Source of the DNA: Candidatus Moraniibacteriota bacterium
GTDB lineage: Bacteria; Patescibacteriota; Minisyncoccia; Moranbacterales; UBA2206
Reading direction: 5' to 3'
Length of the DNA: 64,000 bases
Assembly: GCA_030645735.1 (NCBI GenBank)
Contig: JAUSNP010000004.1
Coordinates: 10,739 to 74,738 of the forward strand
The notes beneath the pieces were generated by a model. It did no database searches. It saw only the letters and a program-made list of their open reading frames with translations, and was not told where the DNA came from. The translations under genes and the position numbers were made by a program. This document shows, piece after piece, positions 1-48,604 of this stretch (its first letter is position 1; the number at the start of each line of letters is the position of its first letter).

Positions 1-354
1 CTTGTTTCGATCTGATCGAACCAATCTAGGACTATTATTTTGTTATCTTGATAAATAAAAAAACTCTCATGGAGTTGCACTTTTTACTTACCCGAGCCAA
101 TATTATACAGGATTGCCAAAAGGCTGTCAATGACATTTTAGTCCGCCTTTCTATCGATTCGCTCAAATCAAAAAACAGGCTTATTCGCCCGCTTTTTTCA
201 CATATCTATTCAGTCTGGTGCTTCTATCTGTGCATCGTGTATTTTGTATGAAATTGTGAAATACGCATATTACACAATAGCCTTTCGCCAATTAAAAAAC
301 AGGATGCTAAGACGCTAACATCCTGTTCTATTCTAGTAAAGCATTCGGCATTGT

Positions 355-939
355 TCACGCCGGGCTAGTGACTGCCAGCATGCATGTTCCAGCTGACCAG
401 ACGCCATGAAAAAATCCGAGATCAAGTACTGCGCCCGCTTTGGTTCGACAATACTGCGGAACCCTGACGCTTCGAATTCCCTCAGAATGTAATGATTTTG
501 GCTGATCGAGGGCTACAATCAAGGTATTTCTTGGAATATCCAAATTGTCAATTGCGAACGCAAGGCCTTGAGCACCCACGAAGAGCGATCTGATTCTTTC
601 AAGCTCTTTAAGGCAGTCTTCGGAACATAGCGTTTTCTTAAGTTGTAATAACTCGAAAACATAGTGTCCATGAGGGACTAAAGTATGCGTAACTCTGCCG
701 AAATTCACATCATTAACACGATTGTTAAACAGTGTATCCCTGCACTGTCTGACCTTTGAGGCTTTGAGTCCAAGCCTGTGATCATAGCTGGGCGGTATTT
801 TGACAGACGCCGTGAGCACGCTTTTCATAGTTCCGCCTGATGATAGAAGAACCCCAGGAAGCCTGCTTCCTTGCTCAACGGCTGTTCCAGCGAGTTTAGT
901 TAAGTCAGGAAATCGACGTGCACAACATTTCGCTCCCAT
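355..939 (-). CDS. Hypothetical protein. The local GC content is clearly higher than in flanking DNA. There is a weak resemblance to the GGT..HR N-terminal segment of AbiEii-type nucleotidyltransferases, but this is not secure.
   Basis: A 194-aa ORF with no strong motif match recognised. It lies in a GC-richer patch (about 50%, against about 38% in neighbouring DNA). The true start may be an internal Met. Confidence 0.3.
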   Translation of the reverse strand: MGAKCCARRFPDLTKLAGTAVEQGSRLPGVLLSSGGTMKSVLTASVKIPPSYDHRLGLKASKVRQCRDTLFNNRVNDVNFGRVTHTLVPHGHYVFELLQLKKTLCSEDCLKELERIRSLFVGAQGLAFAIDNLDIPRNTLIVALDQPKSLHSEGIRSVRVPQYCRTKAGAVLDLGFFHGVWSAGTCMLAVTSPA

Positions 940-13957: not shown

Positions 13958-14394
13958 AATGCTCTTTTTTCGCAGTCCGTAAAGTCCCAAGTCCGTAAAG
14001 TTTTTAAAGTCACATACTTTATGGACTTTTGACTTTATAGCCTTTCGACTCTAGAACGCGTTTATAACTGGTGCAAAAAACAAAAATGAAAAGATCGCAA
14101 TCGCAATTACAGAGAAGATGATGAAGATAAACTTCAAGCTTTCTCCGTATTTTTTAGAATACGATTTCATATTATTATTGTCCATTGTAAATATACTAAT
14201 ACAACTATTTATTCAGTAGATCTTGTGCACTCAGTTGAATTTCGCCATAAGCAAACTTCAACCGAGATAGTTTAGAAACTATTAACCACTAACCCACGCA
14301 TAACGCGTAACGCATATCGTGAAACATATATGAAATACGTTCTACGATTTGCGCTCTACGATCTGCGATTTATTTAAATTTAAGAGTGTAATTT

Positions 14395-17570
<3,176 letters not shown>

Positions 17571-35295: not shown

Positions 35296-35667
35296 CTACT
35301 CCCTAGATACAAAATAAAACTCTATCAAAAATATTCCTGCCAACAACAATAATCCATCCCACCAAACTAGCAATCTCAGGCTTTGCAAAATCAGAAGTCC
35401 AATCGCAAACAATGCCAACAACATTCCCTGTCGAAAACTAAGTCCGACATTGGAAAAAGCATTTTCCATATCCACATTTTTTCTACGTAACCACAACAAC
35501 AACAGATTGAAAAGCCCACTCAGAGCAAAAAACAAACTGCAATAAAAAAGCAATTTGCCCGCCACACCTGTCGCATCTGGATCAACGAATTTGACCACAA
35601 AAACAAATGCCACAACTGAAAGCAAAGTTACCAAACGAATGCCCCAAATGTATGATTTTAAGGTCAT
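35296..35667 (-). CDS. Small integral membrane protein (4 TM helices), hypothetical
   Basis: A 123-aa hydrophobic ORF. Confidence 0.45.
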   Translation of the reverse strand: MTLKSYIWGIRLVTLLSVVAFVFVVKFVDPDATGVAGKLLFYCSLFFALSGLFNLLLLWLRRKNVDMENAFSNVGLSFRQGMLLALFAIGLLILQSLRLLVWWDGLLLLAGIFLIEFYFVSRE

Positions 35668-35897
35668 AGAAGTTTAATTGTTTTTTTATTTTACTTTTTT
35701 AATTATACAGCATTTCAAATATTTTGGCAAAGGCTTAAATAAAGCAAAAACAGTCCGCCAAGACGAACTGTTTTTGATATGCGGGAAGGACAGTTGATAG
35801 GTGGGAACATGTTTCCAAGGCTGGTGACTGGCATTTTGGAGAATTGGGATAGGATTGAGGTGAAAGTGGAAAGGATGGAGACTTTGATGAAGGGTTG

Positions 35898-36113
35898 CTA
35901 GTTACTAGCCTTGTCTTGCGTTTGTTTCATCTTTGCTAGAGCGCCATTTATAAACACCATTCCGAGCCTACTAAGCTTATCCATATGTAATTCAGCCTCA
36001 TCCTCGGTGATTTTCTTGCCGGAGCGTTCGAATATGAGATTCTGACACTTCTTGATTAGCTCATTTGAATATGTGCGACTTGGTTGTTCTTCTCTTTTTA
36101 AGTTTGTCATATT
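35898..36113 (-). CDS. Small protein of the paralogous ELIKKCQ..IFERSGKKIT.DEAE family, copy 1
   Basis: The start is chosen at the internal Met (MTNLKREEQPSRTYSNELIKKCQNLIFERSGKKITEDEAELHMDKL...) by alignment with copy 2. It is followed by an intrinsic-terminator-like hairpin at about 35740-35770. Confidence 0.5.
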   Translation of the reverse strand, partial: NMTNLKREEQPSRTYSNELIKKCQNLIFERSGKKITEDEAELHMDKLSRLGMVFINGALAKMKQTQDKASN

Positions 36114-36192
36114 CTTTGTGATGATAGTGAAAACAAATTGACCACACTCTTTATTATGCAACAATTGAATAAAAAAATTTTACTTTTTTTAT

Positions 36193-36642
36193 CTAAATTA
36201 TATTTAGATAGACAAAAAATAAAACACTTATAAGATTCACGAATAACAACGCCGTCATAACAAAAGTTTGAATTTCGATAAATTTCGATTGCCATGCCTT
36301 TCCTCCAAATGGGCCAACTAGATGTTTTCCAGTTTCTCTTGCGTGTTTAGTATAAACTTCGGCTGATTCTCGAGTAATTAAAAAATAAAAGAGATTTTCC
36401 AATAAAGCCGCCAAAACAATTAAAACAGCGGTGAGAATTATGATAAAAAAGAAAACTTTCTTGTAATTTGTATCAAGAGACACTGATGTTGAAAGAAAGA
36501 AAAGCCCCGATGTAACAGGCGTGTATATTGTCAAAAGAAGTTTTGAAAATATCCTTCTTTCTTTATCTGTTTCATTAATCAGTTTGTTAAACACCCGCAT
36601 GATTGTTAGTTCATCATTTGGATCTAATTTATCGGTATCCAT
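36193..36642 (-). CDS. Integral membrane protein, hypothetical, downstream partner of copy 2 of the small protein family
   Basis: A 149-aa ORF with three hydrophobic helices. It lies 21 nt from the preceding gene. Confidence 0.45.
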   Translation of the reverse strand: MDTDKLDPNDELTIMRVFNKLINETDKERRIFSKLLLTIYTPVTSGLFFLSTSVSLDTNYKKVFFFIIILTAVLIVLAALLENLFYFLITRESAEVYTKHARETGKHLVGPFGGKAWQSKFIEIQTFVMTALLFVNLISVLFFVYLNII

Positions 36643-36663
36643 TTCGGTTAATAACTAAATTTA

Positions 36664-36855
36664 TTATTTCTTTTTTACTTGTTCCTCTTGATCCAAAACT
36701 TTCACCGCCAGCATGAAATAGCGCGCAAATTTTTCGAGATATAATTCGGCCTTGTCCTTAGTGATTTTTTTGCCGGAGCGTTCAAATATGATCCGCTGGC
36801 ACTTTTTAATCAATTCACTCGAGAATGTGCGTTTTGGCTGATTTTCTTTTATCAT
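36664..36855 (-). CDS. Small protein of the ELIKKCQ..IFERSGKKIT family, copy 2
   Basis: MIKENQPKRTFSSELIKKCQRIIFERSGKKITKDKAELYLEKFARYF.... Identity to copy 1 is clear. Confidence 0.55.
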   Translation of the reverse strand: MIKENQPKRTFSSELIKKCQRIIFERSGKKITKDKAELYLEKFARYFMLAVKVLDQEEQVKKK

Positions 36856-36921
36856 ATTATTTGCCTTGTTGCAAAAACAAATCGCTGTTGTGCTTATTAT
36901 GCGATAGAGCGATTAAAAAAA

Positions 36922-37221
36922 TTACTTTTTTCCAGATTCCAAATTTTGTTCGGCTGGCGAAAGACCACCGGCGGCTTTATGCGGAAAATAATTCCAAGCG
37001 TCTGTGACAAGCTCCAAAACATTGCCCAATTCTGAGGCATCGCCACCACGGTCAAACATCGCCACGACATGCATAAAATCATCCTGCTCTTCTTCGTTGA
37101 AAATCGCATCTTTGATATCTCGCAATTCAAAATCACTTTCAGTTTCTTCAAGCATTTCCAAAATCTCGCTTTCAATTTCTTTGCGCCTTTCTAAAATTTC
37201 TTCTTTTGTTTCAGTTTCCAT
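36922..37221 (-). CDS. Acidic small cytoplasmic protein, hypothetical, 5 nt downstream of the serine protease gene
   Basis: A 99-aa ORF rich in E/D (MFDRGGDASELGNVLELVTDAWNYF). It overlaps an alternative-frame ORF that is judged spurious. Confidence 0.45.
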   Translation of the reverse strand: METETKEEILERRKEIESEILEMLEETESDFELRDIKDAIFNEEEQDDFMHVVAMFDRGGDASELGNVLELVTDAWNYFPHKAAGGLSPAEQNLESGKK

Positions 37222-37226
37222 ATTTT

Positions 37227-38102
37227 TTATTTTTCAGATCCAACATCTTGAACTTTTGCCTCCTCGGTTTTTTGAGGTAGAGGAATTTTGTCAATAATTT
37301 CAAATATTAATTCGATAGGCACAACTCTTACTAATCCAGTTTGTTCTGTAAATATTATTCTAGGCTCACCAGTCTGCTGACTAATAGCAACATCAGAATA
37401 ATTTTCTCCTGAACTAACAACGCCTATTAATCCTGCGGAAGGATTACTTTGGGTGCCAGCAATTGCTAGCAATTCCGGTTTATGGATAACTGGGCCTCCA
37501 CTATTTCCGGGATAAGCCGAAGCATCGATATAGAAAAAACCTTCCCCCAATACTTCTTCATCAACTCTAGCTATTATTCCTTGTCTAACAATAACAAAAT
37601 TTCTTGCTTTACCACTTATACGCATTGGAAATCCAAGTACAAACAATCCATCGCCGGTTGAAATATTTTTTGTTGCAAAATCTTTAGCATAAAATAACTC
37701 TTCCCCAACAAAAAAATCGTAATTTATTTTTGCCTCGTCTATTGCAGTAGCGTTAATTGGAAGCACCGCCAAATCAACTCTTTCATCTTCGTGCATTAAC
37801 CAGAGAGGACAACCATCACTCTTTAATAAATTCACTTTGAAATAATGACTTTTATTATCCAAAGTGTTAAATCTAAAAAATACCTCCTTGAGAAATTCCT
37901 TTGTTTTTTTATTCTGATATACATGCCTATTTGTCACAATAAACAACCTGAAGAGGGCGCCTCCTTCATTACTTTTGCCTGTTGGTTTTCCCACCAAAAA
38001 ACCCGTTGCAATTGAGTTTTTTTGCAACAATCCATTATTATCTTTACTCTCAACTTCAATTGATACAACTGAGTTTAAATAATGTGGTGGTATTAATGAC
38101 AT
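37227..38102 (-). CDS. Trypsin-like (S1/chymotrypsin fold) serine protease with no signal peptide, sitting within the R-M operon
   Basis: His (..TNRHVY..), Asp (..RVDLAVLPI..) and Ser (..GNSGGPV..) triad motifs appear in canonical order. The gene is co-directional with res and lies 6 nt downstream of it. Confidence 0.7.
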   Translation of the reverse strand: MSLIPPHYLNSVVSIEVESKDNNGLLQKNSIATGFLVGKPTGKSNEGGALFRLFIVTNRHVYQNKKTKEFLKEVFFRFNTLDNKSHYFKVNLLKSDGCPLWLMHEDERVDLAVLPINATAIDEAKINYDFFVGEELFYAKDFATKNISTGDGLFVLGFPMRISGKARNFVIVRQGIIARVDEEVLGEGFFYIDASAYPGNSGGPVIHKPELLAIAGTQSNPSAGLIGVVSSGENYSDVAISQQTGEPRIIFTEQTGLVRVVPIELIFEIIDKIPLPQKTEEAKVQDVGSEK

Positions 38103-38108
38103 AAGATT

Positions 38109-40784
38109 TTATTTTTTAAATGCACCTACTAACTGCATAAAGCTTGTCGGCTTATATTTATCCCATTCCTCCTGCTTAACATAAAGCATTTTATATTCAA
38201 TTTTCTTTTGTCTTTCACTGGCATCCTCGCACCATTGTGCCAATCTTTTTATTTTTTCAATATCATCCAAATCTTCCCGTCCTTTTGTTTCGATAATATA
38301 GATTGTTTTGTTATCTGTCTTCACAAAAAAGTCTGGGTAATAACTGGAAATTGCACCGCTCGCATTTTTGTAATCAATCTTGAAATGAATTTCAAAGTAA
38401 TTTTTTGCGAAAGAAAGCACATCTTCAGCACCTTCCAAGAAGTCCGCAAATTCAAGCTCGAAATCACTGTCGCCGACAATTTTATTAAATACGCTCTTTT
38501 TGGGCAATAAATATTTTTTATCAGTTACCACAAATGGTCGCGCGCTACTAATTTTGAGATAATTTTTTATTTCCGTATCACCAACATCCTGCACAGTCAA
38601 ATTGTTTATCTCTTTTTTAAAGGTTTCGACAATAGTTTTTACCGCCTCTAATTCGGATAAGTTTCGCAAAATATTTGCGTCATTAAGATTCACTTCTTCA
38701 TTAAATAGATGCGCGTTGATAAATTCTTTCACTTTGCCAAAAAGAATGTCATAGCAACCAAAGAGACGGAGTTCTTTCATTATTCTTTGCACAAAAAATC
38801 CAATCACACTTTGGTAATTTGGCTCAATGGAGCTATTCAAAATTGTTGTGTGATGTTCTTTGTCATCAATAACTTCCTTAAAAACAATCTCTTTCTTTTC
38901 TTCCTCGGAAAACTGCTTAACTGAAATTTTTTCATGTTTGAAAGTAGCAATATTCAATAGATTGAGATTTTTGTATTCCCTCTGGATTCTCGGTGTCAGA
39001 ACCGGCAGTTCAATGTCCAAATTTTCAATATCTTTTTTTACATTTTCATGATCGACTTCAATGACTGTGGGAGTGATTGGAGAACCGCTTCGATCCATTC
39101 TTCTTTTTTCCAATTCAACACCTTCTGCCTTGATTGATTCAACAAACTCCATAAAAGCAGGTGTTCCAATGATACTCACATACTCTTCCACATCTTGTCC
39201 AAAAAACATTCGGCGAAGACCACGACCGAGTGTCTGCTCTGGCAAAATTTTTGAATCAGAACCATAAGGACGGAGTCCAACGATTGTTGTCACATTTTTT
39301 ACATCCCAACCCTCTTTGAGCATCAAGACAGAAACAATGACTTTATATGGGCTTTCCATGCTATCAATATCATTGGCCTTTTTCCTGAGTTCTTGCAATT
39401 CTTTTTCTTTTTTGCCAGTTGTCGTTTCAGATATCTCACCACTTCTATTTGTGTGAATTGTCAGAACCGCACCTTTCAATTGTGGATAGCTATTTTCCAA
39501 AAATTCCGCCACATCATCACAATTCGTTGTATCATCAGTCATTATAAAAAGAATCGATTTTTTTCCTGTTGGCAATAATTCTGTATATATCTTTTCCCAT
39601 TCTTCCACGCCCAGTCGAATAAAGTCTTCGTATTTTTCAGAAAATATTGAACTTTGTTTTTCTTGCAGTTTTGCCCGACTGGCAGAATCCGGCAAGACCG
39701 GATTTTTCACTACGCCTTGATGGATAGCTTCAACCAGCGGATAGTCAGAAACAGTCTGCACAAAAATCTCGCCACGATTATTTTTTGGTGTCGCAGTCAC
39801 ATCGATTTGCAAAGCTAGTTTTTTACCCTTTTGTAATAATCGATTATGAATATCTTCGATTGATTTAAACCATGCCATTTTTGGATCATGAATGTGATGA
39901 GCTTCGTCATTAATAACCATCAACTCATCAACGTCGCGCACGATTTCTCCTAAATCAATTTTTGAATCATTAGTCTTTCCAGTAACCTTACTGCCCATAA
40001 AATAATCTGACGTGTCCTCATCTTCAAAACTAGCTTCAGATATATCGCCTTCATAAACTCTATGTATATTAGTCAGAAAAATATTTCCCGATTTTGAAAT
40101 TGTGCCAACCTCATCTTGCAAATGCAGTTTTATTTGAAAATCATCTTGCCAATTTTGTCCGGCAAATCCATTATCAGGCAAAATCGGATCATCATGAAAT
40201 ATTTTCAATCCTTCAAAATCAGCCTTGATTCGATCCAAAACGATGATATTTGGCGTGATGAGTAAGAAATTTTTAGATAGTTCAGAATCTTCTTCATAAA
40301 GCTTGTGAAAATATGACCAAGCTAATAGCAAACTCATAACTTTTGTTTTTCCACTTCCAGTCGCCATCTTTATCACAAAACGAAGCCAATCCTCATTGAA
40401 CATATTCGGACTAACACGACCCAATTTATCAAACTTTATCAAATCATATTTGTTGGAAACTTTTTCAACATCATAGAGCCAGATAATTGTTTCCACTGCC
40501 TCTCTTTGAGCATAATAATATTGAAAGGAAACGCTTGTTCCGTCTTTGGCAAAAATGGTGTGTGGCTCAAGAAACCACCAATTCAAAAGAGCCTTGGAAG
40601 TTTCGCTTGCTCCGTCATAATTATTCTTTCGCCACTCCGCAACTTGCTCACGCAATTCTGGAACAAAAGGAGGCAAAAGCTTTTCAAAACCCTCTCTTCG
40701 CAAATCTTCTTCGGCCGGAAACCACCTGATTGCCGGATCAAGGATTTGAAATTTATCTTTTGGAAAATCTTTGTGTAATGCCAT
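38109..40784 (-). CDS. res: Type III restriction enzyme Res subunit (SF2 helicase plus a C-terminal PD-(D/E)xK-like nuclease)
   Basis: Walker A is ..MATGSGKTKVM... DEAH box is ..VINDEAHHI... A helicase C-terminal region follows. The C-terminal ..YYPDFFV...YIIETKGRE.. motif is nuclease-like. Confidence 0.85.
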   Translation of the reverse strand: MALHKDFPKDKFQILDPAIRWFPAEEDLRREGFEKLLPPFVPELREQVAEWRKNNYDGASETSKALLNWWFLEPHTIFAKDGTSVSFQYYYAQREAVETIIWLYDVEKVSNKYDLIKFDKLGRVSPNMFNEDWLRFVIKMATGSGKTKVMSLLLAWSYFHKLYEEDSELSKNFLLITPNIIVLDRIKADFEGLKIFHDDPILPDNGFAGQNWQDDFQIKLHLQDEVGTISKSGNIFLTNIHRVYEGDISEASFEDEDTSDYFMGSKVTGKTNDSKIDLGEIVRDVDELMVINDEAHHIHDPKMAWFKSIEDIHNRLLQKGKKLALQIDVTATPKNNRGEIFVQTVSDYPLVEAIHQGVVKNPVLPDSASRAKLQEKQSSIFSEKYEDFIRLGVEEWEKIYTELLPTGKKSILFIMTDDTTNCDDVAEFLENSYPQLKGAVLTIHTNRSGEISETTTGKKEKELQELRKKANDIDSMESPYKVIVSVLMLKEGWDVKNVTTIVGLRPYGSDSKILPEQTLGRGLRRMFFGQDVEEYVSIIGTPAFMEFVESIKAEGVELEKRRMDRSGSPITPTVIEVDHENVKKDIENLDIELPVLTPRIQREYKNLNLLNIATFKHEKISVKQFSEEEKKEIVFKEVIDDKEHHTTILNSSIEPNYQSVIGFFVQRIMKELRLFGCYDILFGKVKEFINAHLFNEEVNLNDANILRNLSELEAVKTIVETFKKEINNLTVQDVGDTEIKNYLKISSARPFVVTDKKYLLPKKSVFNKIVGDSDFELEFADFLEGAEDVLSFAKNYFEIHFKIDYKNASGAISSYYPDFFVKTDNKTIYIIETKGREDLDDIEKIKRLAQWCEDASERQKKIEYKMLYVKQEEWDKYKPTSFMQLVGAFKK

Positions 40785-40788
40785 ATAA

Positions 40789-41145
40789 CTATTTCTTTTT
40801 TATTAGCTCCTGAATTTGTTTTTGCTGTTCCAATATTAACTGTTGATTTTTTTGATTTTGATCAAGAAGTTCCTGGTTAATCTTCTGTGATTGTTCAACA
40901 GATCCGGTTTTTTCTGAATATTCCTTATAGATGGCTGAATTTATATGAAAAGAATCAATAATCAATGTTGACACCATCACTAATAAAATTATAACAACAC
41001 TAAGTAAGATATAGTTTATATCTTTAAATTTAGAATCGGCTTCTTTTTTAACATCTTCCACCGTAACAGAGCCACCAGTTTCTGGTATTTTAATTTGGAT
41101 TTCACCAAGTTCAGATTTTTCAAATTGCACTTGTTCCTTTTCCAT
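40789..41145 (-). CDS. Small single-pass membrane protein with a Q-rich coiled-coil C-terminus, inserted between mod and res
   Basis: A 118-aa ORF with a central TM helix (ILLSVVIILLVMVSTLII) and ...QELLDQNQKNQQLILEQQKQIQELIKKK. Confidence 0.4.
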   Translation of the reverse strand: MEKEQVQFEKSELGEIQIKIPETGGSVTVEDVKKEADSKFKDINYILLSVVIILLVMVSTLIIDSFHINSAIYKEYSEKTGSVEQSQKINQELLDQNQKNQQLILEQQKQIQELIKKK

Positions 41146-41148
41146 AAA

Positions 41149-41367
41149 TTAAAAAATACCCTTAATTACAAGAACGCCAGACTCCTCCTCAACAGCAAAA
41201 TCTCTTCCAACAAATTGAGCAAGATCTATCCCACTAAAAGACACTCCTCTACCAAATCTAACACCTGGGCCCATTTGCACGCCACCAATTCTAACCAAGC
41301 GAAGAGGCTCAATGCTTCCATCTGTATCTACTTTAAATATTTGATAAAAATTAATTCTTTGAATCAT
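41149..41367 (-). CDS. Small Gly-rich hypothetical protein between mod and res
   Basis: A 72-aa ORF with a 4-nt overlap or spacing to its neighbours. No motif was recognised. Confidence 0.3.
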   Translation of the reverse strand: MIQRINFYQIFKVDTDGSIEPLRLVRIGGVQMGPGVRFGRGVSFSGIDLAQFVGRDFAVEEESGVLVIKGIF

Positions 41368-41371
41368 TAAT

Positions 41372-43534
41372 TTATATATTTATCTCAATTACTTTGGTCG
41401 TATCGTTTCCAAAAATATCAATCACCTTGATTGCGATTTTCATTTTGCCTTTGGACACTTCCTTGAAAACTGAAATCAATTCAAGAGATCTGTCTTTTTT
41501 GGTTCTGAATGATTGCCACTCATTTTCAAAAATATAATTTCCAGTCCATTTTTCTTCAAAGTCGCCTATCTCCATTTGTACAGCATCAGACGATCCATCA
41601 AGTTTTTGCTGAACAGTTTTTTCTTTCGGCACTCTGATAATTTCTTTTTTGCTTTCAAAATCAAAATCCACCGACCAATAATCAATCCAGTCAGTCCATT
41701 TTTTTGTCAAAGTTTCACGCTCAATAATATCCGTATTTTTATCCTTGGAAATCTTTATGACTTGACCGTTTTCAATGACAATCTTGTTTCCACCGGATTT
41801 CAATTTTTCCTCCACTTCTCCAGTATTGTCTTGATTATAGAAAACGGAGAAATCAGTTATCTCAATAGCAACTTCTTTGGCGTTGCCTCGTCCGCGGATA
41901 ATTGGTTTAACTTCAATATAGGCAATGTCATAAAATTTCACCTGTCCTTTTTCAACCGCTTTTTTATCAAACACTTCACGCGGAATAACCTTAAATTGCA
42001 CATCAATACCCAGTTTTTTTGCTTGCTCAAAGTCCAGTCCCATTTCATAGTCAAATCCCAAAACATCAGCTTTAGTTATTTTATTCTCCCGACATTCAGT
42101 GATTATTTTTTCCAGAAAATCATTTGTAATTGGCGTATCAATTGATCCGACTGCAATCAGCCTATCTCTTTTCTTACCGACAAATGAATTGAATGAATCA
42201 ATTGGCTCAGCCTTGTAGGCAGAAAGAATGAGTTTGATAAATTCTTTTTCTTTATTCACCCTTTGAATTCTTTTTTCTTCGTCACGCAAATTTTCATTCA
42301 CAGTCAAAAACTTCTCTCTTTCATATTTTCCAATATTTAAAATTTCAAATGCTCGAAAATTTTTACCAACTTTCTTCAATTCTCTTTGCACCCCAATCAT
42401 TCTCTTGCGAGTGGTATGGACAGAAAAACGACCTAAATCAGAACCAATCCATTTTCGATTTAGCTTTTCTGCAACCGCCAAAGTTGTGCCTGAGCCACAG
42501 AAAAAATCAGCAACAAGATCACCTTCATTGGAAGAGGCGCTTATTATTCTTCTGAGCAGTGACTCTGGTTTCTGGGTTGGATAAGCAATGTGTTCAGGAA
42601 GTGCATTAAAAACCTGTCCGATATTATTTTCTTTTCTATCTAGCCAAGTCCAAACATCATCCGCTTTTCTCCCTTCATCTGCATAATATCTTGTAGCATT
42701 ATTATTTCCAGACATTCTATACTTTCTACCATCCTCATCAACAAGAGGATAAATACTTTCATTCTTTACAAGCAAACGCACTTGATTAAATTTTACTGAT
42801 TTTTTATTTTTAGCAAAAGAAATTATATAATCATGCTTTTTAGCAAAGCCTTTTATTGGCGCTGTACCAGCCTGATAATGCCAAATTATTTGATTCAAAA
42901 AATTTTCCTTTCCAAAAATTTCATCTAGAATTAAGCGCATATAACTATTCAATCTCCAATCACAATGCACATAAACACTACCATCATCCGCCAAAAGACC
43001 GTGCATCAACTTTAGCCTTTCATAAATCATCGCTATAAAACTATCGGCGCCTTTGCCCCAGGTGTCGCGGTAGGCAATTTCTTCAATCACCGACGGTTTT
43101 TTGGTGAAAGTATCTTCGCCAATTTCAATATTCATCGAAAAATCCGCGCCCACATCAAATGGAGGATCGATATAAATCAATTTCAATCCACCCTCAGCTT
43201 CAATTTGTTTTCGAAGTGGTCCATTCTTGAGCGATGACAAAATCAATTTATTGTCACCCCAAATTAGCTTGTTTGACCAGCCTTTCATTTGCCGGCCAGA
43301 AGTGTCAAAAAGAGAAGTTTGCGCGGTTATTTTTTCCTCACTCCGTGGTTCATCAATATGCTCAATCGTCTGAAATGGCAAAACTATATTTTCCGTTTCA
43401 TCAGTTTTTCCATTCCATAAAAGCTCAACCTCCCGATCGGTGTCAAAAAGCAAAAAGCGGTATTTCTCCGGCAATGACTTGCCAGATTCCAAATACTTTA
43501 TTACATCTCGTTTTTCATTCTCAGTTAGCTTCAT
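41372..43534 (-). CDS. mod: Type III R-M Mod subunit (N6-adenine/N4-cytosine beta-class DNA methyltransferase)
   Basis: Motif IV (..LIYIDPPFDVGADF..) precedes motif I (..DFFCGSGTTLAVA..). The protein is 720 aa and lies upstream of res in the same orientation. Confidence 0.85.
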   Translation of the reverse strand: MKLTENEKRDVIKYLESGKSLPEKYRFLLFDTDREVELLWNGKTDETENIVLPFQTIEHIDEPRSEEKITAQTSLFDTSGRQMKGWSNKLIWGDNKLILSSLKNGPLRKQIEAEGGLKLIYIDPPFDVGADFSMNIEIGEDTFTKKPSVIEEIAYRDTWGKGADSFIAMIYERLKLMHGLLADDGSVYVHCDWRLNSYMRLILDEIFGKENFLNQIIWHYQAGTAPIKGFAKKHDYIISFAKNKKSVKFNQVRLLVKNESIYPLVDEDGRKYRMSGNNNATRYYADEGRKADDVWTWLDRKENNIGQVFNALPEHIAYPTQKPESLLRRIISASSNEGDLVADFFCGSGTTLAVAEKLNRKWIGSDLGRFSVHTTRKRMIGVQRELKKVGKNFRAFEILNIGKYEREKFLTVNENLRDEEKRIQRVNKEKEFIKLILSAYKAEPIDSFNSFVGKKRDRLIAVGSIDTPITNDFLEKIITECRENKITKADVLGFDYEMGLDFEQAKKLGIDVQFKVIPREVFDKKAVEKGQVKFYDIAYIEVKPIIRGRGNAKEVAIEITDFSVFYNQDNTGEVEEKLKSGGNKIVIENGQVIKISKDKNTDIIERETLTKKWTDWIDYWSVDFDFESKKEIIRVPKEKTVQQKLDGSSDAVQMEIGDFEEKWTGNYIFENEWQSFRTKKDRSLELISVFKEVSKGKMKIAIKVIDIFGNDTTKVIEINI

Positions 43535-43571
43535 ATCTTATTGAAACACAAAGGGTTTTTTAGCTATTCTT

Positions 43572-44561
43572 ATGGTATCATTAAGTAAGGGTTTATTCAA
43601 GACAGATGAAATGAGCAGGATTTCAAATACAAATAGCACAGGAGGATTGGAAATAGATCGCCTAATGGGCGACGATTTTCTTTTTCTCCTCCTTATTCTG
43701 ATTGACTACCCAGAAAAAAATCCCGGCATCCTTGATCCAGCTCCGTTTGGAAAATTTAGATTCAAAAATTTGCAGTGGAAGTATTGTATTGAATTTATAC
43801 TGTTTCTCAAAAATTGTGCTGGCATAAAAGTCACACGAACAAACCAAGACCTTCCCGAAGTTGAAGTTTTTGAGGAATCGATTGAAATTATTCAAAATGG
43901 CATAAATAATTATTTGGAAAAATTCATCTCTGGCGAACTTATCCCCATTGATAAAAATTATTTAAATTTTGAAAAACAGAAAAAATATTTTCTAGAGAAA
44001 ATAAAAACTAAGCTTGAAAATGAAACATCTAAAACGCTTTTTCTTTCTGACAATGAAATTGAAAATGAATATGATTTTTTTGAAAGCATGTTGGCTTTGG
44101 AAAGGCAAAAATATTTAAAAATAAAAAGTGTCACCAATTCCCAAAAGCCAGAAAGCTCTGATTTTTATAAAATAGTTTTTACAATACGATCAAAATTTCA
44201 CAAAAAAGTTAGCGTGCAAAACAAAAAAGTTAGAAGGCTTTCCGTTAAATGCTTTTCAAAAGGAAACTTGGGCTATTTTCGCGTGAAAAAAGAATCCAAA
44301 GAAAAAATCATCGGAAAGGCTAATTCCAGGCCGTTTTTATTATTACAATTTTTAGTCAATCAAGGCATTGGCGAAATAGTATCGTTCCAAAAAGCTTTCA
44401 AGGCCATCAAAGACGGCAAACATTATAAAACAACCTCCCACCTTGTGGATGAAGAATTGGCCGCTCTTATAAATGCTAGGAAAGTTCTGCAGAAAGAGAG
44501 AAAAATACACCCCTTCAAACTAATTATCGGCAAAAAAGACCGCACAATCCGAATGCAATAA
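43572..44561 (+). CDS. Hypothetical protein, about 300 aa, lysine-rich, in the mobile-element-like module. The start is uncertain.
   Basis: A long plus-strand ORF. No catalytic motif was recognised. The C-terminal region is helix-rich. Confidence 0.45.
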   Translation: MVSLSKGLFKTDEMSRISNTNSTGGLEIDRLMGDDFLFLLLILIDYPEKNPGILDPAPFGKFRFKNLQWKYCIEFILFLKNCAGIKVTRTNQDLPEVEVFEESIEIIQNGINNYLEKFISGELIPIDKNYLNFEKQKKYFLEKIKTKLENETSKTLFLSDNEIENEYDFFESMLALERQKYLKIKSVTNSQKPESSDFYKIVFTIRSKFHKKVSVQNKKVRRLSVKCFSKGNLGYFRVKKESKEKIIGKANSRPFLLLQFLVNQGIGEIVSFQKAFKAIKDGKHYKTTSHLVDEELAALINARKVLQKERKIHPFKLIIGKKDRTIRMQ

Positions 44562-44698
44562 ATTAAAATCATTTTATTGATTTTGGAAAAAACAGAGAAT
44601 TCACTCTGTTTTTTCGTTTGAATAAACGAAAAAGTTCAACAGCCAATTCTCTCGTGGCTTGTTTTCTTGACGGCGTGGGGAGCGTTTTATGTAATGCA

Positions 44699-44896
44699 GT
44701 CATGCAAGAACAATTTTCACCACACCTCATAGAAAAATGCCAAAAGCTCGTTTTCAAGCGAGCTGGGGTTCACATCACCGAAGATCAAGCAGGGAGGTGC
44801 TTGGAAAAATTGGCGCGTTTGGCTAAACTGGCTTTCGAGACTCTTGTGGAAAATAAACATAATGCAAAACCCGATGGAAAGAATAATCACAATTGA
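44699..44896 (+). CDS. Small protein of the ELIKKCQ family, copy 3 (..PHLIEKCQKLVFKRAGVHITEDQAGRCLEKLARL..)
   Basis: The start is placed at the internal Met by alignment with copies 1 and 2. Confidence 0.5.
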   Translation, partial: VMQEQFSPHLIEKCQKLVFKRAGVHITEDQAGRCLEKLARLAKLAFETLVENKHNAKPDGKNNHN

Positions 44897-45173
44897 TAAA
44901 AATGCCCGCTTAAAAATCATTTGCGGAAGCATAATGTTGCAATATAGGAAAAAATCCAAAACAAAGCAAATAGCGTGGCACACAGACGGCCATTTCTCAG
45001 ATTATGCATCAATGGCAGAACATTACATTTCCAACGCGCCATACCGCGCTATTGAAGGCACAGCGTCAATAGAAAAGCTGATTGAAGTCGTCCAGCAGTC
45101 GAGCGACCAAATCAGCCGAGTTTTGAAAAATAATCAATTAAATGGAAAATCACATGGAAAATCAAACCGATGA
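44862..45173 (+). CDS. Hypothetical small protein
   Basis: An ORF of about 100 aa that overlaps the end of the preceding gene, with a start at an internal Met. Confidence 0.35.
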   Translation: MQNPMERIITIDKNARLKIICGSIMLQYRKKSKTKQIAWHTDGHFSDYASMAEHYISNAPYRAIEGTASIEKLIEVVQQSSDQISRVLKNNQLNGKSHGKSNR

Positions 45174-45375
45174 GACTACGAATGAAGAATTCAATCAAAT
45201 ACCAGCTGGTGAGAAACTCTGCCCGCTCATGAATGGATTCTACAAGGGCATTCCTTGCACTTCAGATTGTGCCCTGTATCGTGAGGGTAAGAATGAAAAT
45301 GCATGTGCTTTGCATGAACTGAGATCGATCAGTTGGTTCATGAAGCAGAGCCAGGACAAAAAGCCCATTGATTAA
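45142..45375 (+). CDS. Small Cys-motif protein (LCPL...C..DC family), copy a
   Basis: A 77-aa ORF containing ...EKLCPLMNGFYKGIPCTSDCALY...C.... Confidence 0.45.
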   Translation: MENHMENQTDETTNEEFNQIPAGEKLCPLMNGFYKGIPCTSDCALYREGKNENACALHELRSISWFMKQSQDKKPID

Positions 45376-45416: not shown

Positions 45417-45662
45417 ATGGCTATGGTCAAGATTGAGGGCTTCCTCAAAAAGCTGGAAAAATTGCCGTTGAGCGAGCTATGCCCGCTCATCGACAATGTG
45501 AAGTGGAACTGCGGAAAATTAGACAAAGGCAATGAGCCATGCTGTCATAATACCTATAAATATATGAACTGTCCGCATTTCAAAAAATGGTTCTATTGGA
45601 ATGTGACCCGGATGGTTGCCAAAGAAATCGCCAAACTGGAAATTAGTCAAAAGAAAAAGTAA
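45417..45662 (+). CDS. Small Cys-motif protein (LCPL...C..CC..C family), copy b, a paralog of 45142-45375
   Basis: An 81-aa ORF containing ...SELCPLIDNVKWNCGKLDKGNEPCCHNTYKYMNCPHF.... Confidence 0.45.
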   Translation: MAMVKIEGFLKKLEKLPLSELCPLIDNVKWNCGKLDKGNEPCCHNTYKYMNCPHFKKWFYWNVTRMVAKEIAKLEISQKKK

Positions 45663-45744: not shown

Positions 45745-46856
45745 AGAAATCTCTCTAACTGAAAAACTGAAACGACCTAAAAATCCCTCTGTCGCGCGAA
45801 AAATGCTACGCTATGCACATTTAAAAGGCTCGGATAAGCCAAAGTTATGGGAATTAAAAATGACGGTGATCCGCCGCGCGCTGGCAACGAACCACTGACT
45901 TGAAAAAATGCACAAATCTTGGCAGAGGCGCAGCGGAAAGGGCGCCAGAGGACAAAAAAATTGGAGCAATCTTTGAGAAGACGCATTTTTGCCGGAACAA
46001 TGACGGCCATCCGGAATTGGACGGAAAAATGCAAGCGACGAGAAGTTGAAACGATTTTGTTTGGCCTCGGGTTCGCACTCCCCTCGCCTTGGGGCGAGGG
46101 GTTGGGGGTGTGGGGAAATCCAAAGTGCGGAAAAGGATTGATGTCCTACAACGGGCATTCTTGCGACACCCCTTTTTTCTCAAAAATCGGGGAAAGCTTG
46201 GACACGATTTTTGCAAGAAAAAAGAGCGTGTTCGCAAAATGCCTCGTTGTGGGAGGGTGAGAAAAAGACAGTCCTTTAGTTTTCAAAGTGAAGTTTTTTT
46301 CGAATCCCCTTGCGTCAATCCTTTTCCTTCCTTGCGGGGAAAGAGATTGAGAAGACCGCCAAGGTTTTCTCACTACTAAAGCAGTTTGACCGCAACCTTT
46401 ATAAATTGTGCAGGATGAAACAGTGGCATTGGAAAAGTCTGATTAGATATTTGGCAGTCTGGAATTTTCGCCGCGAAAAGTTCCAGTCTGCCAAATTCCT
46501 TGAATGAAAACATTTTCCAAGGACACTGTTTCTTTCTGCTTTCCTTTTTGATTGGTTGCGGGAAAACTACCCTTATTTTAGGGGGTTATCCATAGAATAA
46601 AAATATGTTATTATACATATGGACACAAATTAATATTCATCAGAACACAATCGGTGCGATTTTTTTTCGTATCGAGAAAAGGGCGACTTTCGCTTCAAGT
46701 TCTGATGAAGAATTTGTGTCCAGCGAGGTCGTCCTTTTGTTTGGGCGAAAAACAAAAAAATTATGGACACAAACTTATTACTCAGCGATTCACCGGCAGA
46801 CTTGCCAACCATATTGATGTTTTTTGGAACATTTATTTTTATAATTTTTATGGAAT

Positions 46857-48443
46857 ATGGAAACGATAAAAACAAAAACAAATAAACCAAAATTTGTCAT
46901 CTATGCCCGTAAGTCATCAGAAGACAATAGCAAACAAGTGCATTCGATTGATGCGCAGATTTTTGTCATGAAAGACATTGCCAAACATGAAGGCATTCAG
47001 ATTGTGGAAATCTTTCAAGAATCAAAATCCGCCAAAGAACCTGGGCGGCCGGTTTTCAACAAGATGATCGAGCAATTCAAGAAAAACAAATATGATGGCA
47101 TTCTCTGCTGGAAAATTGACCGCTTGGCGAGAAATCCGGTGGACGCCGGAATTGTGCAATGGCTTTTGCAGAAAAATTCCATCCAGCAGATTATCACCAG
47201 CGACCGAAAATATAATCCGGAAGATAATGTCATTATTGCCAGCGTAGAATTCGGAATGTCGAATCAGTATATTTTGGATTTGTCTAAAAATGTGAAACGC
47301 GGTTTGGCGGAGAAAGTTCGGCGCGGAGAATATCCCGGGCCGGTGCCACTCGGATATTTGCGAGATTTCAAAACTAAAAAGATTATCCTAGATCCTGACA
47401 AAGCGCACTATATCAAACGAGCCTACCAACTTTATTCAACTGGCCTTTATTCTATCGACCAGCTCACGGAAAAACTGAACAATGAAGGCTTGCGCTCTTT
47501 GCACAGCCAAAGAGTCCAGCCATCAATTATTGGGCGCATGCTGAATAATCCAATTTATTATGGCTGGTTTGAATGGAAGGGCCAACTTTGCCCGGGCAAG
47601 CACGCGCCAATCATCTCCAAGGACATTTTTGACAAGGTGGACGAGATAATGTTTCCGCAGAGGGTTATGAAACGGAAAGATAAGCGAAAGTTCACTTTTC
47701 GCGGCCTTTTGCGTTGCGGTGAGTGTGGGTTGAAGATAACCGCGGAGGTGCGGAAAGGCCACACCTATTATCGTTGCACGAAATCCAGAGGCACCAACAA
47801 ATGCTCCCAAAGATATGTGCGTGAAGAGGCTCTGGACGAAGAAATCAACCGCAAGCTATCTGAGCTCAACTTTGATCCGGAAGTGACTGAGCTGGCCATT
47901 TTGGCGCTCAAAGACCAAAACAGAAACCAACTGCAACAGCAAATTGAAATCCAAAGAAAGAACGAGGAACTGCTCCGCAAGAACCGAGAATCGCAAGACA
48001 TCCTCGTCAATCGCTTTTTGGACAATCTCGTGCCAGAGGATATTTATAATCGCCGGCTGACAGGCTTGCGCAACGATGAAGCACGGTTGGATGAAATAAT
48101 CCAAAACACCAAAGACAACACACGCAACGCTTTTGATAAGATTGAAACGATTGTGCGCTTTTCCCAATTAGCCAATGAAATATTTACAAATGGAACTCCG
48201 GTAGCGAAGAAAGAAGTGGCTGGCATAATATCTTCGGACATCACTTTGAAAGATAGAAAAATCCTTGATTTTAGCCTTGATGTTGAATTTCAATGGATGA
48301 TAGATGATATGAATGACTCGTTTGCCCTAAACCACAAAATTGCAATCTTGGAACCAGTCACTTTAGCTTTAGAAAAAGCAAAAGCAGGCATTGAGTTGCC
48401 TGCTAAAAGCGTTGTGCGGGGCTGGCCGGACTCGAACCGGTGA
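46857..48443 (+). CDS. Large serine recombinase (phage-integrase type). It has a resolvase catalytic domain, a recombinase domain and a zinc-ribbon domain.
   Basis: The N-terminus is ..FVIYARKSSEDNSKQVHSIDAQ.. with the catalytic Ser motif, followed by ..ILCWKIDRLARN... The zinc ribbon is ..CGECGLKIT...YYRCTK..C.. and a long coiled coil follows. The last roughly 25 nt of the ORF overlap the 3' end of tRNA-Asp. Confidence 0.9.
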   Translation: METIKTKTNKPKFVIYARKSSEDNSKQVHSIDAQIFVMKDIAKHEGIQIVEIFQESKSAKEPGRPVFNKMIEQFKKNKYDGILCWKIDRLARNPVDAGIVQWLLQKNSIQQIITSDRKYNPEDNVIIASVEFGMSNQYILDLSKNVKRGLAEKVRRGEYPGPVPLGYLRDFKTKKIILDPDKAHYIKRAYQLYSTGLYSIDQLTEKLNNEGLRSLHSQRVQPSIIGRMLNNPIYYGWFEWKGQLCPGKHAPIISKDIFDKVDEIMFPQRVMKRKDKRKFTFRGLLRCGECGLKITAEVRKGHTYYRCTKSRGTNKCSQRYVREEALDEEINRKLSELNFDPEVTELAILALKDQNRNQLQQQIEIQRKNEELLRKNRESQDILVNRFLDNLVPEDIYNRRLTGLRNDEARLDEIIQNTKDNTRNAFDKIETIVRFSQLANEIFTNGTPVAKKEVAGIISSDITLKDRKILDFSLDVEFQWMIDDMNDSFALNHKIAILEPVTLALEKAKAGIELPAKSVVRGWPDSNR

Positions 48444-48490
48444 CCTACTGCGTGACAGGCAGTCGCTCTAACCAACTGAGCTACAGCCCC
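48417..48490 (-). tRNA. tRNA-Asp (anticodon GTC)
   Basis: The reverse complement is GGGGCTGTAGCTCAGTTGGTTAGAGCGACTGCCTGTCACGCAGTAGGTCACCGGTTCGAGTCCGGCCAGCCCC plus a discriminator. The cloverleaf and the anticodon loop CTGTCAC were checked by eye. Confidence 0.8.
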
Positions 48491-48513: not shown

Positions 48514-48576
48514 TTGCGTAACCTACTGCGTGGCAGTCCCGAGTACTCGGGATCTGACCAACTGAGCTACAGCCCC
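48514..48576 (-). pseudogene. Truncated pseudo-tRNA-Asp fragment. It comprises the 5' acceptor and D arm, an 18-nt palindrome, and an anticodon-stem remnant, and has no T arm.
   Basis: The reverse complement is GGGGCTGTAGCTCAGTTGGTCAGA-tcccgagtactcggga-CTGCCACGCAGTAGGTTACGCAA. It duplicates the 5' half of the adjacent tRNA-Asp. Confidence 0.5.
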
Positions 48577-48604
48577 ATAATTTGTCTATTTTATTTTCAA
48601 CCCG

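Follow-up and report, generated by a model that had tools for sequence, protein, structure and literature searches.

Large serine recombinases (LSRs) are leading tools for genome integration, and the factors that control them are few, mutually unrelated, and hard to find. In the mycobacteriophages BPs and Brujita, as reportedly described by Broussard et al. in 2013, attP lies inside the repressor gene and immunity depends on integration, while rolling-circle plasmids, such as pMV158, have an operon layout of copG followed by repB. The recombination directionality factor (RDF) SprB of SPbeta has only 58 amino acids (aa) and a helix at either terminus, the C-terminal one being essential (PMC11722253), and a paper cited in the same article has suggested the extreme C-terminus of SprA as a toggle element. 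The RDF of the serine integrase of the Streptomyces phage phiJoe, gp52, has 62 aa, its gene and that of the integrase flank attP, and its role was argued from restricted co-occurrence and a parallel phylogeny with the integrase (PMC5311408). Here, we describe a family of small proteins that has three gene copies, termed c1, c2, and c3, in a 64,000-nucleotide stretch of the genome of a Candidatus Moraniibacteriota bacterium (contig JAUSNP010000004.1, positions 10,739 to 74,738; hereafter, the window), where they form part of an integrative island that is mobilized by an LSR and bounded by a tRNA gene (Table 1).

A small protein family of CPR bacteria

The initial annotation of the window had proposed that the three genes form one family, while allowing that their resemblance might reflect a low-complexity Lys/Glu composition. 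Our results reveal real paralogs that are protein-coding and under purifying selection. Specifically, pairwise BLASTP with composition-based statistics, SEG filtering, and a search space of 2e7 residues related c1 to c2 at E=5e-18 (64% over 47 aa), c2 to c3 at E=5e-9, and c1 to c3 at E=2e-7, and because these composition-corrected values are significant, the similarity is not one of low complexity. Fifteen columns, all in a core of ~45 residues, are invariant among the copies; they include L-I-x-K-C-Q...F-x-R-x-G..I-T-x-D-x-A, such that the CQ..F.R.G core highlighted at the outset is kept in all three. Orthologues on other contigs have a proportion of nonsynonymous differences (pN) of 0.05-0.19 against a synonymous proportion (pS) of 0.43-0.94, with a ratio of the corresponding rates (dN/dS) of 0.07-0.21 where dS is unsaturated. 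Selection thus acts on the protein and not on a DNA repeat. Nevertheless, the copies at the two ends of the island are inverted relative to each other, and the DNA of c1 and c2 is 74% identical over 120 nucleotides (nt), as might be seen if the similarity were that of a terminal inverted repeat, or of compositional bias, with no protein family behind it. The saturation of synonymous sites alongside few amino-acid changes effectively refutes such an origin, the similarity ends at the borders of the open reading frames (ORFs), and the E-values hold after composition correction, leaving this explanation with a vanishingly small chance of being right. A tblastn search of the whole window revealed no fourth copy. 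c1 and c2 correspond to Q7T51_01880 and Q7T51_01890 on a 127-kb contig of a Candidatus Moranbacteria metagenome-assembled genome, and of the gene boundaries first assigned, those of c2 were exact, while the starts of c1 and c3 had been placed one codon too early.

The profile search and comparison of genomic contexts that the initial annotation had suggested yielded a small family of stand-alone proteins, of 50-100 aa, that is restricted to the candidate phyla radiation (CPR)/Patescibacteria and whose members share an island architecture. When 5.8 billion proteins were searched through a word index with a profile of the three copies, 32 proteins of 54-98 aa were returned; all carry the annotation hypothetical, and they originate from Candidatus Moranbacteria and further CPR metagenomes. 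HMMER, run exhaustively against 1.84 billion representatives, returned 62 clusters at E<=1e-3, 61 of which are stand-alone proteins of 46-119 aa, the remaining one being a spurious repeat protein, and a widened 67-sequence profile, used in a further word-indexed search, added only further small hypothetical proteins from Moranbacteria, Doudnabacteria, and Parcubacteria. Except for the spurious repeat protein, no fusions were found in the exhaustive and widened-profile searches; one member has a short N-terminal extension resembling the start of fam7, the regulator encoded upstream of c3. Scans of c1, c2, c3, and all 33 members against Pfam, PHROGs, NCBIfam, and PADLOC gave nothing above threshold, with no PADLOC model matched by c1, c2, or c3. 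The sole Pfam family matched by several members, DUF7612, scored at best 14.1 bits (E=0.045, for c2) against a gathering threshold of 27 bits; five of the 33 members matched it weakly (best E=0.012), and only over profile positions 20-47 of 132. A sequence-profile search of the PDB gave a single chance match, and no relative was found among IMG/VR viral contigs, and the element is therefore not a recognized phage.

The family consensus is M-x-x-x-[FY]-[SP]-x-x-L-I-x-K-[CA]-[QK]-x-x-[IVF]-x-x-R-x-G-x-x-[IL]-[ST]-x-[DE]-x-A-E-x-x-L-[ED]-x-[LF]-[AG]-R. Its Cys is invariant in close members and substituted in distant ones, and is therefore not catalytic. Modeled alone, as had also been suggested, the small protein forms two unequal helices (AlphaFold2 monomer; predicted local distance difference test score, pLDDT, of 86; residues 16-30 and 36-69) that follow a disordered N-terminus. 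The predicted fold thus joins a short helix to a long one through a G-x-x-[IL]-[ST] loop.

A recombinase gene that contains attP

Contexts were gathered by exact-protein look-ups and from GTDB genomes and metagenomes, and annotated by all-against-all ORF clustering and hidden Markov model (HMM) scans. They revealed one architecture common to 18 distinct loci (loci other than the window are given L numbers): a winged-helix regulator is followed by the small protein, Cys-rich genes, either a structured RNA or a rolling-circle Rep, and an LSR that ends inside a tRNA. The LSR or its detached tail is visible in 17 of the 18, the exception being a 2-kb contig. The small protein is accordingly a backbone component of integrative islands mobilized by an LSR that inserts at tRNA 3' ends, and the earlier suggestion that the family travels with a mobile element is borne out.

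In all eight islands in which both the recombinase 3' end and the tRNA are visible, the recombinase ORF ends inside the opposite-strand tRNA gene, and tRNA-Asp, Trp, Ala, and Tyr all serve as targets. In the 12 window-type (non-Rep) islands with the far end visible (the window, L001, L004, L011, L014-L016, L018, L020, L022, L024, and L025), the recombinase strand carries there a conserved tail, ...ILENWDRIEV[RK][LV]ER..[AT]LM..*, and the recombinase gene in its integrated form ends in tRNA-encoded residues (GWPDSNR* or VQESNLR*). The attL/attR core of 6-11 nt lies at the extreme 3' end of the tRNA (TGCGGG for tRNA-Asp and ATGCACGG[GA]G for tRNA-Trp), and the reading frames agree across it in both of these groups. 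Further, the left-end ORF of L022 is colinear with the last 160 recombinase residues before it continues into the tail, and a 4.3-kb contig, L024, carries an un-split 575-aa recombinase that runs into the tail, convergent with a distal-type copy of the small protein. The in-frame tail, the L022 ORF, and the un-split L024 gene therefore place attP inside the recombinase ORF. Integration swaps a conserved C-terminal helix of ~40 residues for eight tRNA-encoded residues: the recombinase reconstructed for the circular form ends ...PAKSVVREGQLIGGNMFPRLVTGILENWDRIEVKVERMETLMKGC, the predicted circular junction reads ...GCTAAAAGCGTTGTGCGGGAAGGACAGTTGATAGG..., and the predicted empty site reads ...GAACTGTTTTTGATATGCGGGGCTGGCCGGACTCG...

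In the window, the stop codon of c1 overlaps that of the recombinase tail ORF, within CTAG. The hairpin at 35745-35776 is the original terminator of the tRNA, and a hairpin in the recombinase 3' coding region doubles as tRNA terminator. No displaced tRNA-Asp 3' fragment was found at the left end, because the crossover core is only ~6 nt. Two other observations concern the history of such sites. First, L022 carries at 3-590 (plus strand) an older recombinase remnant (the last ~170 codons) that continues in frame into the tail belonging to the present island, and one tRNA can therefore accumulate islands in tandem. Second, immediately upstream of its intact tRNA-Asp gene, the window contains a further, partial copy of this tRNA, from its 5' two-thirds (48518-48578; repeat families D3 and D8), which may be the scar of an earlier rearrangement or integration.

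Proximal and distal copies

Members of the family occupy two positions in the islands. Proximal copies, such as c3, head a separate transcription unit that leads to the recombinase, are preceded by a terminator-like hairpin, and overlap the next gene or lie within ~7 nt of it. Distal copies, such as c1 and c2, stand at the end of the oppositely oriented cargo operon, beside attL, where they either follow the last cargo gene by 12-66 nt, with no terminator between, or overlap the ORF ahead of them. Excision as a circle brings them next to the 3' end of the recombinase gene, in convergent orientation on the other side of attP, and so both kinds belong to the recombination module. The initial annotation had placed only the third copy there, which is right for c3 but incomplete, given that the distal copies also adjoin the recombinase across attP.

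The two kinds also differ at their N-termini, in that proximal copies start M-x-x-x-F-[SP], while distal copies have a longer N-terminus ending in [KR]-R-T-[FY]-[SP], and this motif correlates with position in 12 of 12 islands of known position. Distal copies are present in seven islands (the window, L014, L016, L018, L020, where there are two in tandem, L024, and L025) and absent from five with the left end visible (L001, L004, L011, L015, and L022). A divergent, Cys-less proximal copy occurs in five islands, all five of which carry a canonical distal copy, and at least one canonical KCQ-type copy is kept in every island. This canonical type is conserved (pN 0.13-0.20; ~65-75% identity to c2) and co-occurs with all three recombinase clades, whereas the known recombinases of those islands share only 48-58% identity from one clade to another; the target of the canonical type is therefore likely to be better conserved than the recombinase. 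The distal-type protein, compared between islands, has a pN of 0.13-0.19 and ~71-73% identity to c2. Proximal copies, in turn, track the recombinase, with identities of the two correlated at r=0.89 (36 pairs from nine islands).

In L014 (9852-10083), L018 (9853-10059), and L023 (3436-3645), a conserved ORF of ~70 aa overlaps the start of the distal copy. It shares with the family a G-K-x-I-S-D-x-E-A (F-G-K-D-I-S-x-x-[DE]-A) turn, but hhalign gave P=0.0015 and a probability of 17%, and it was not counted as a member; it may be a very divergent paralog.

A proposed role in control of the recombination operon

We tentatively favor a role for the small protein as an RHH/Cop/Cro-like control protein of the recombination operon, with a probability of roughly 0.4; a small regulator, as first proposed, thus remains the best guess at its function. 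The protein would probably be a dimeric nucleic-acid-binding factor, of the ribbon-helix-helix (RHH), CopG, or Cro kind, that sets the expression of the recombination-replication operon. Autoregulation of this operon would fall to the proximal copy at its head. Transcribed together with cargo that is needed constitutively, the distal copy would provide the factor in the integrated state and hold the module silent; different sites would be read by the two N-terminal motifs (MQxQF and [KR]-R-T-[FY]). Several observations are in line with such a role. The proximal copy occupies the slot of a genetic switch, in that it comes first behind a regulator and a terminator and is coupled to the genes that follow, in an architecture that recurs in 18 loci. 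The agreement of N-terminal motif with position, the retention of a canonical copy by every island, and the conservation of the canonical type across three recombinase clades, which exceeds that of the recombinase, point the same way. Since no terminator separates cargo from the distal copy, the two are expected to be expressed together, as would befit a maintenance repressor. Further, the structural neighbors of the family, at low Z, are RHH proteins, and the disordered N-terminus of the monomer model is as expected if an N-terminal strand forms only in the dimer. Finally, in the most divergent loci, L033-L035, the operon (small protein, a further gene, a rolling-circle replication Rep, and the LSR in L033 and L034) has the copG-repB layout of rolling-circle plasmids.

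Other results weigh against this role. Among RHH profiles, only Repressor_Mnt was matched, by one of 33 members and not significantly (E=0.13), and no RHH family emerged through NCBIfam or PDB sequences. The N-terminal beta-strand is itself doubtful, in that the segment before helix 1 has one conserved hydrophobic residue, for which a helix N-cap with a hydrophobic staple is equally plausible. Upstream of 14 proximal copies there is no common operator-like motif, only terminator T-runs. In addition, the islands already encode other regulators (fam7 and Xre), and our data offer no explanation for the two to three copies in some islands. As a candidate operator, we considered the palindrome CGTTTGAATAAACG upstream of c3, which has one near-copy, inside the c3 ORF, a count at chance level; visual inspection of the region ahead of the L001 orthologue revealed no comparable palindrome.

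The placement of the genes around attP raises the main competing possibility, which we consider somewhat less likely, namely that the small protein is an RDF, binding the LSR (its second DNA-binding domain and coiled-coil hinge) and switching it from integration to excision. At 58-70 aa and mostly helical, members resemble SprB of SPbeta, and they occur only in elements with this recombinase type, the 2-kb contig again excepted. In the circle, attP has the distal copies on one side and the recombinase on the other, and integration carries them to opposite ends of the island, as happens with phiJoe gp52 and its integrase; L024 shows the un-split arrangement. The correlation of proximal-copy with recombinase identity fits an RDF as well. 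The proximal copy is also the first gene of an operon leading to the recombinase, a position comparable to that of xis in ICEBs1 and pSAM2, and like that of Xis in the early operon of TP901-1. Yet the distal copies appear to be co-transcribed with constitutive restriction-modification (R-M) cargo, and because a constitutive RDF would block integration and drive excision, this speaks against such a function. Two to three paralogs per island would be unusual for an RDF, and the canonical type is more conserved than the recombinase and accompanies all three of its clades. The family has no similarity to TP901-1 Xis or phiJoe gp52 (hhalign probability < 1%), which is weak evidence, since known RDFs are not homologous to each other.

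A candidate structured RNA upstream of the recombinase

The recombinase is preceded by a gap of ~1 kb without a conserved ORF, where DNA identity across islands is 66-94% even though the flanking genes and the recombinases are much more divergent. No Rfam family matched this stretch. Comparative analysis of its ~450-nt core points to a candidate novel RNA with nine helices, 83 pairs, and strong covariation: 93% of cells are paired, as opposed to 47-57% when 3' partners are slid, and 32 pairs show double changes, as opposed to 7-12 when slid and 16.7 +/- 2.5 when shuffled, with none of 500 shuffles reaching 32. Conserved G-U pairs, one of them invariant in eight of eight sequences, identify the recombinase-sense strand as the folded strand. 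Alternatively, the stretch could be a single-strand origin. We also considered guiding of the bridge-RNA kind, for which the RNA and attL or attR had no common stretch beyond chance length in five islands.

Given that the canonical small protein and this RNA are the two most conserved parts of the islands, the protein could be an RNA-binding or chaperone partner of the RNA (Rop-like), or a nucleoid-associated protein carried by the island, and the Lys-rich tails of many members, the predicted helical-hairpin fold, and weak echoes of histone folds among the structure matches are compatible with such a partnership. We regard it as improbable. The elements of distant members carry Rep in place of the RNA and leave no room for it, the two helices are very unequal in length, unlike those of Rop, and the basic tail is not conserved, being missing from c1 and c3.

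A bolder proposal, which we put forward as speculative, would join these elements: the family may supply a factor dedicated to the control or directionality of CPR integrative elements of a class not described before, in which the position of attP within the recombinase gene makes a C-terminal toggle, the recombinase leader contains the ~450-nt RNA, and two-helix paralogs on both sides of attP read or set the state. The integration-state-dependent recombinase C-terminus and the conserved structured RNA make directionality control testable in this setting. If true, a compact factor of ~60 aa that goes with a clade of tRNA-targeting recombinases could be used and tested directly; should the protein prove to be no more than an ordinary autoregulator, the result is still a clean definition of an orphan family and exact island borders. 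Either way, the islands are a recurrent vehicle of defense systems in CPR bacteria, whose mobile elements have barely been described.

Membrane proteins downstream of the distal copies

It had been noted that each of the minus-strand copies is followed by a small polytopic membrane protein, and an antitoxin or immunity function had been suggested partly on this basis. The adjacency is true, but the pairing is not conserved: all-against-all ORF clustering found no homologue of either membrane protein in any other locus, and the second, the 123-aa protein, lies beyond the attL core and is therefore a host gene and not part of the island. The latter is preceded by a promoter-like site (consensus match 11/12) as well as by the terminator hairpin described above; a scan with the promoter consensus found no more sites than in shuffles, and we make no promoter claim for c1-c3. 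In other islands, the distal copies are followed by a Maf-like gene (L016), by a second family copy and a weak HEPN-like protein (L020), by a 275-aa soluble protein (L024), or only by attL (L014 and L018).

A protein that neutralizes the product of the gene immediately downstream, as in an addiction or abortive-infection pair, could be read into the position of the 149-aa membrane protein 21 nt after c2, the tandem copies of L020 ahead of their HEPN-like protein (Pfam E=0.006), and the overlap of the L024 copy with its 275-aa ORF. The wider comparison makes such a function very improbable. The distal protein is conserved while the gene after it changes completely from island to island, leaving no conserved adjacent partner; c1 and the distal copies of L014 and L018 have no island gene at all behind them, the membrane protein next to c1 being that of the host; proximal copies are followed by the unrelated fam10 or fam1; and PADLOC gave no match.

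Backbone genes, cargo, and coordinates

Features of the window are collected in Table 1. After the proximal copy, fam10 is also found in L001, L011, L022, L026, L028, and L029, while an unrelated gene, fam1, takes its place in L004, L014, L015, L016, L018, L020, and L025. The regulator upstream of the proximal copy is Xre-type in some islands. Cargo, which in the window is divergent from fam7, includes in other islands type I or type II R-M, DUF87 with PD-(D/E)XK, a KAP NTPase, AAA_13, S24/LexA-like, and HNH proteins. The most divergent members come from Doudnabacteria-type contigs (L033-L035), in which a gene for 257-305 aa precedes the small protein and is followed, in L033 and L034, by one for 79-127 aa, with the rolling-circle Rep (PF23343) and the LSR completing the order; the recombinase ends in tRNA-Ala in L034 and in tRNA-Tyr in L035. 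L033 adds VirB4/TraG-like and type IV secretion system (T4SS) pilin-like genes, which hint at an integrative conjugative element in CPR bacteria. Elsewhere in the window, a 23S rRNA match at 14382-17563 (minus strand) spans 3182 nt against a model of 2925 positions and contains a 156-aa ORF (15355-15825, plus strand); the excess may represent an insertion or intron, such as rRNA genes of CPR bacteria commonly contain.

Table 1. Features of the island and its surroundings, in positions of the window
Feature	Position	Strand	Size	Remarks
123-aa membrane protein	35296-35667	-	123 aa	Host gene beyond attL; preceded by a promoter-like site and the original tRNA terminator hairpin, 35745-35776
Detached recombinase 3' end	35779-35901	+		Conserved tail ...GILENWDRIEVKVERMETLMKGC*; attL core TGCGGG at 35780-35785; in frame with the recombinase across the core
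c1	35898-36110	-	70 aa	Second distal copy; ATG at 36110; outermost complete island gene; from the ORF listing
149-aa membrane protein	36193-36642	-	149 aa	Between c2 and c1, 21 nt after c2; island-specific variable cargo
c2	36664-36855	-	63 aa	Canonical distal copy, KRTF-S..LIKKCQ type; 66 nt after the preceding cargo gene, same direction
Cargo operon	36922-43534	-		Ends in c2, the 149-aa membrane protein, and c1
Acidic 99-aa protein	36922-37221	-	99 aa	Adjoins the trypsin-like protease
Trypsin-like protease	37227-38102	-		Inside the type III R-M operon; PADLOC candidate defense model PDC-S45, E=3e-24
Type III Res	38109-40784	-		Cargo operon, which has two further small ORFs
Type III Mod	41372-43534	-		Cargo operon
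fam7	43572-44561	+	329 aa	OmpR/PhoB-type winged-helix DNA-binding domain; divergent from the cargo operon
c3	44702-44896	+	64 aa	Proximal copy, MQxQF-S type; ATG at 44702; first gene 3' of the terminator-like hairpin downstream of the winged-helix regulator
fam10	44874-45173	+	~99 aa	Overlaps the end of c3 by 23 nt; translational coupling
fam24	45142-45375	+		Small Cys-rich backbone gene
fam12	45417-45662	+		Small Cys-rich backbone gene
Conserved non-coding stretch	45820-46780	+		Core ~46070-46500; covarying secondary structure, candidate novel RNA
Large serine recombinase, integrated form	46857-48443	+	528 aa	Last 8 codons and stop from the complement of tRNA-Asp
tRNA-Asp, integration target	48416-48490	-		attR core TGCGGG at 48415-48420, extreme 3' end of the tRNA

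Comparison with known systems

The comparison with described control proteins is closest in size and setting. Like SprB, the family has ~60 aa and two helices joined by a loop, and SprB acts on an LSR; unlike the developmentally induced SprB, the distal copies look constitutively co-transcribed with cargo, and we know of no homology between the two. With phiJoe gp52 the family has in common its small size, the flanking of attP together with the integrase gene, a position adjoining attL or attR when integrated, and both restriction to and co-evolution with an integrase type. The differences are that gp52 is predicted to have a helix, an unstructured region, and a beta-sheet, has no sequence similarity to the family, and is a single-copy gene divergent from int, whereas the distal copies herein are convergent with the recombinase and attP lies inside the recombinase ORF. 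Xis (ORF7, 64 aa) of TP901-1 is likewise a small gene in an early operon beside the genetic switch of a serine-integrase element, although it is the third gene of its operon and not the first, and has no sequence similarity to the family.

Among repressors, the CopG/RHH proteins (~45-60 aa; helix, Gly turn, helix) are alike in size and helices, and like copG, the family member in L033-L035 comes first in an operon that leads on to rep. In contrast to CopG, helix 2 of the family has twice the length, the turn contains one more residue (G-x-x-I-T instead of G-x-S), there is no significant profile match, and the N-terminal strand is doubtful. For the island, as distinct from the small protein, the nearest parallel is with BPs and Brujita, where attP also lies in an ORF and the integrated and excised forms also differ in a C-terminus, but here the split gene is that of a serine recombinase, the swapped part is a conserved helix, and the target is a tRNA 3' end.

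The family has no homologue among characterized proteins, and its closest functional analogues are the small RDFs and the RHH Cop/Cro-type regulators. The island that carries it is of a known kind, being a tRNA-integrating, serine-recombinase-driven genomic island with defense cargo. What is new, relative to these systems, is the family itself, its placement on both sides of attP, and its setting of a split recombinase ORF and a structured RNA.

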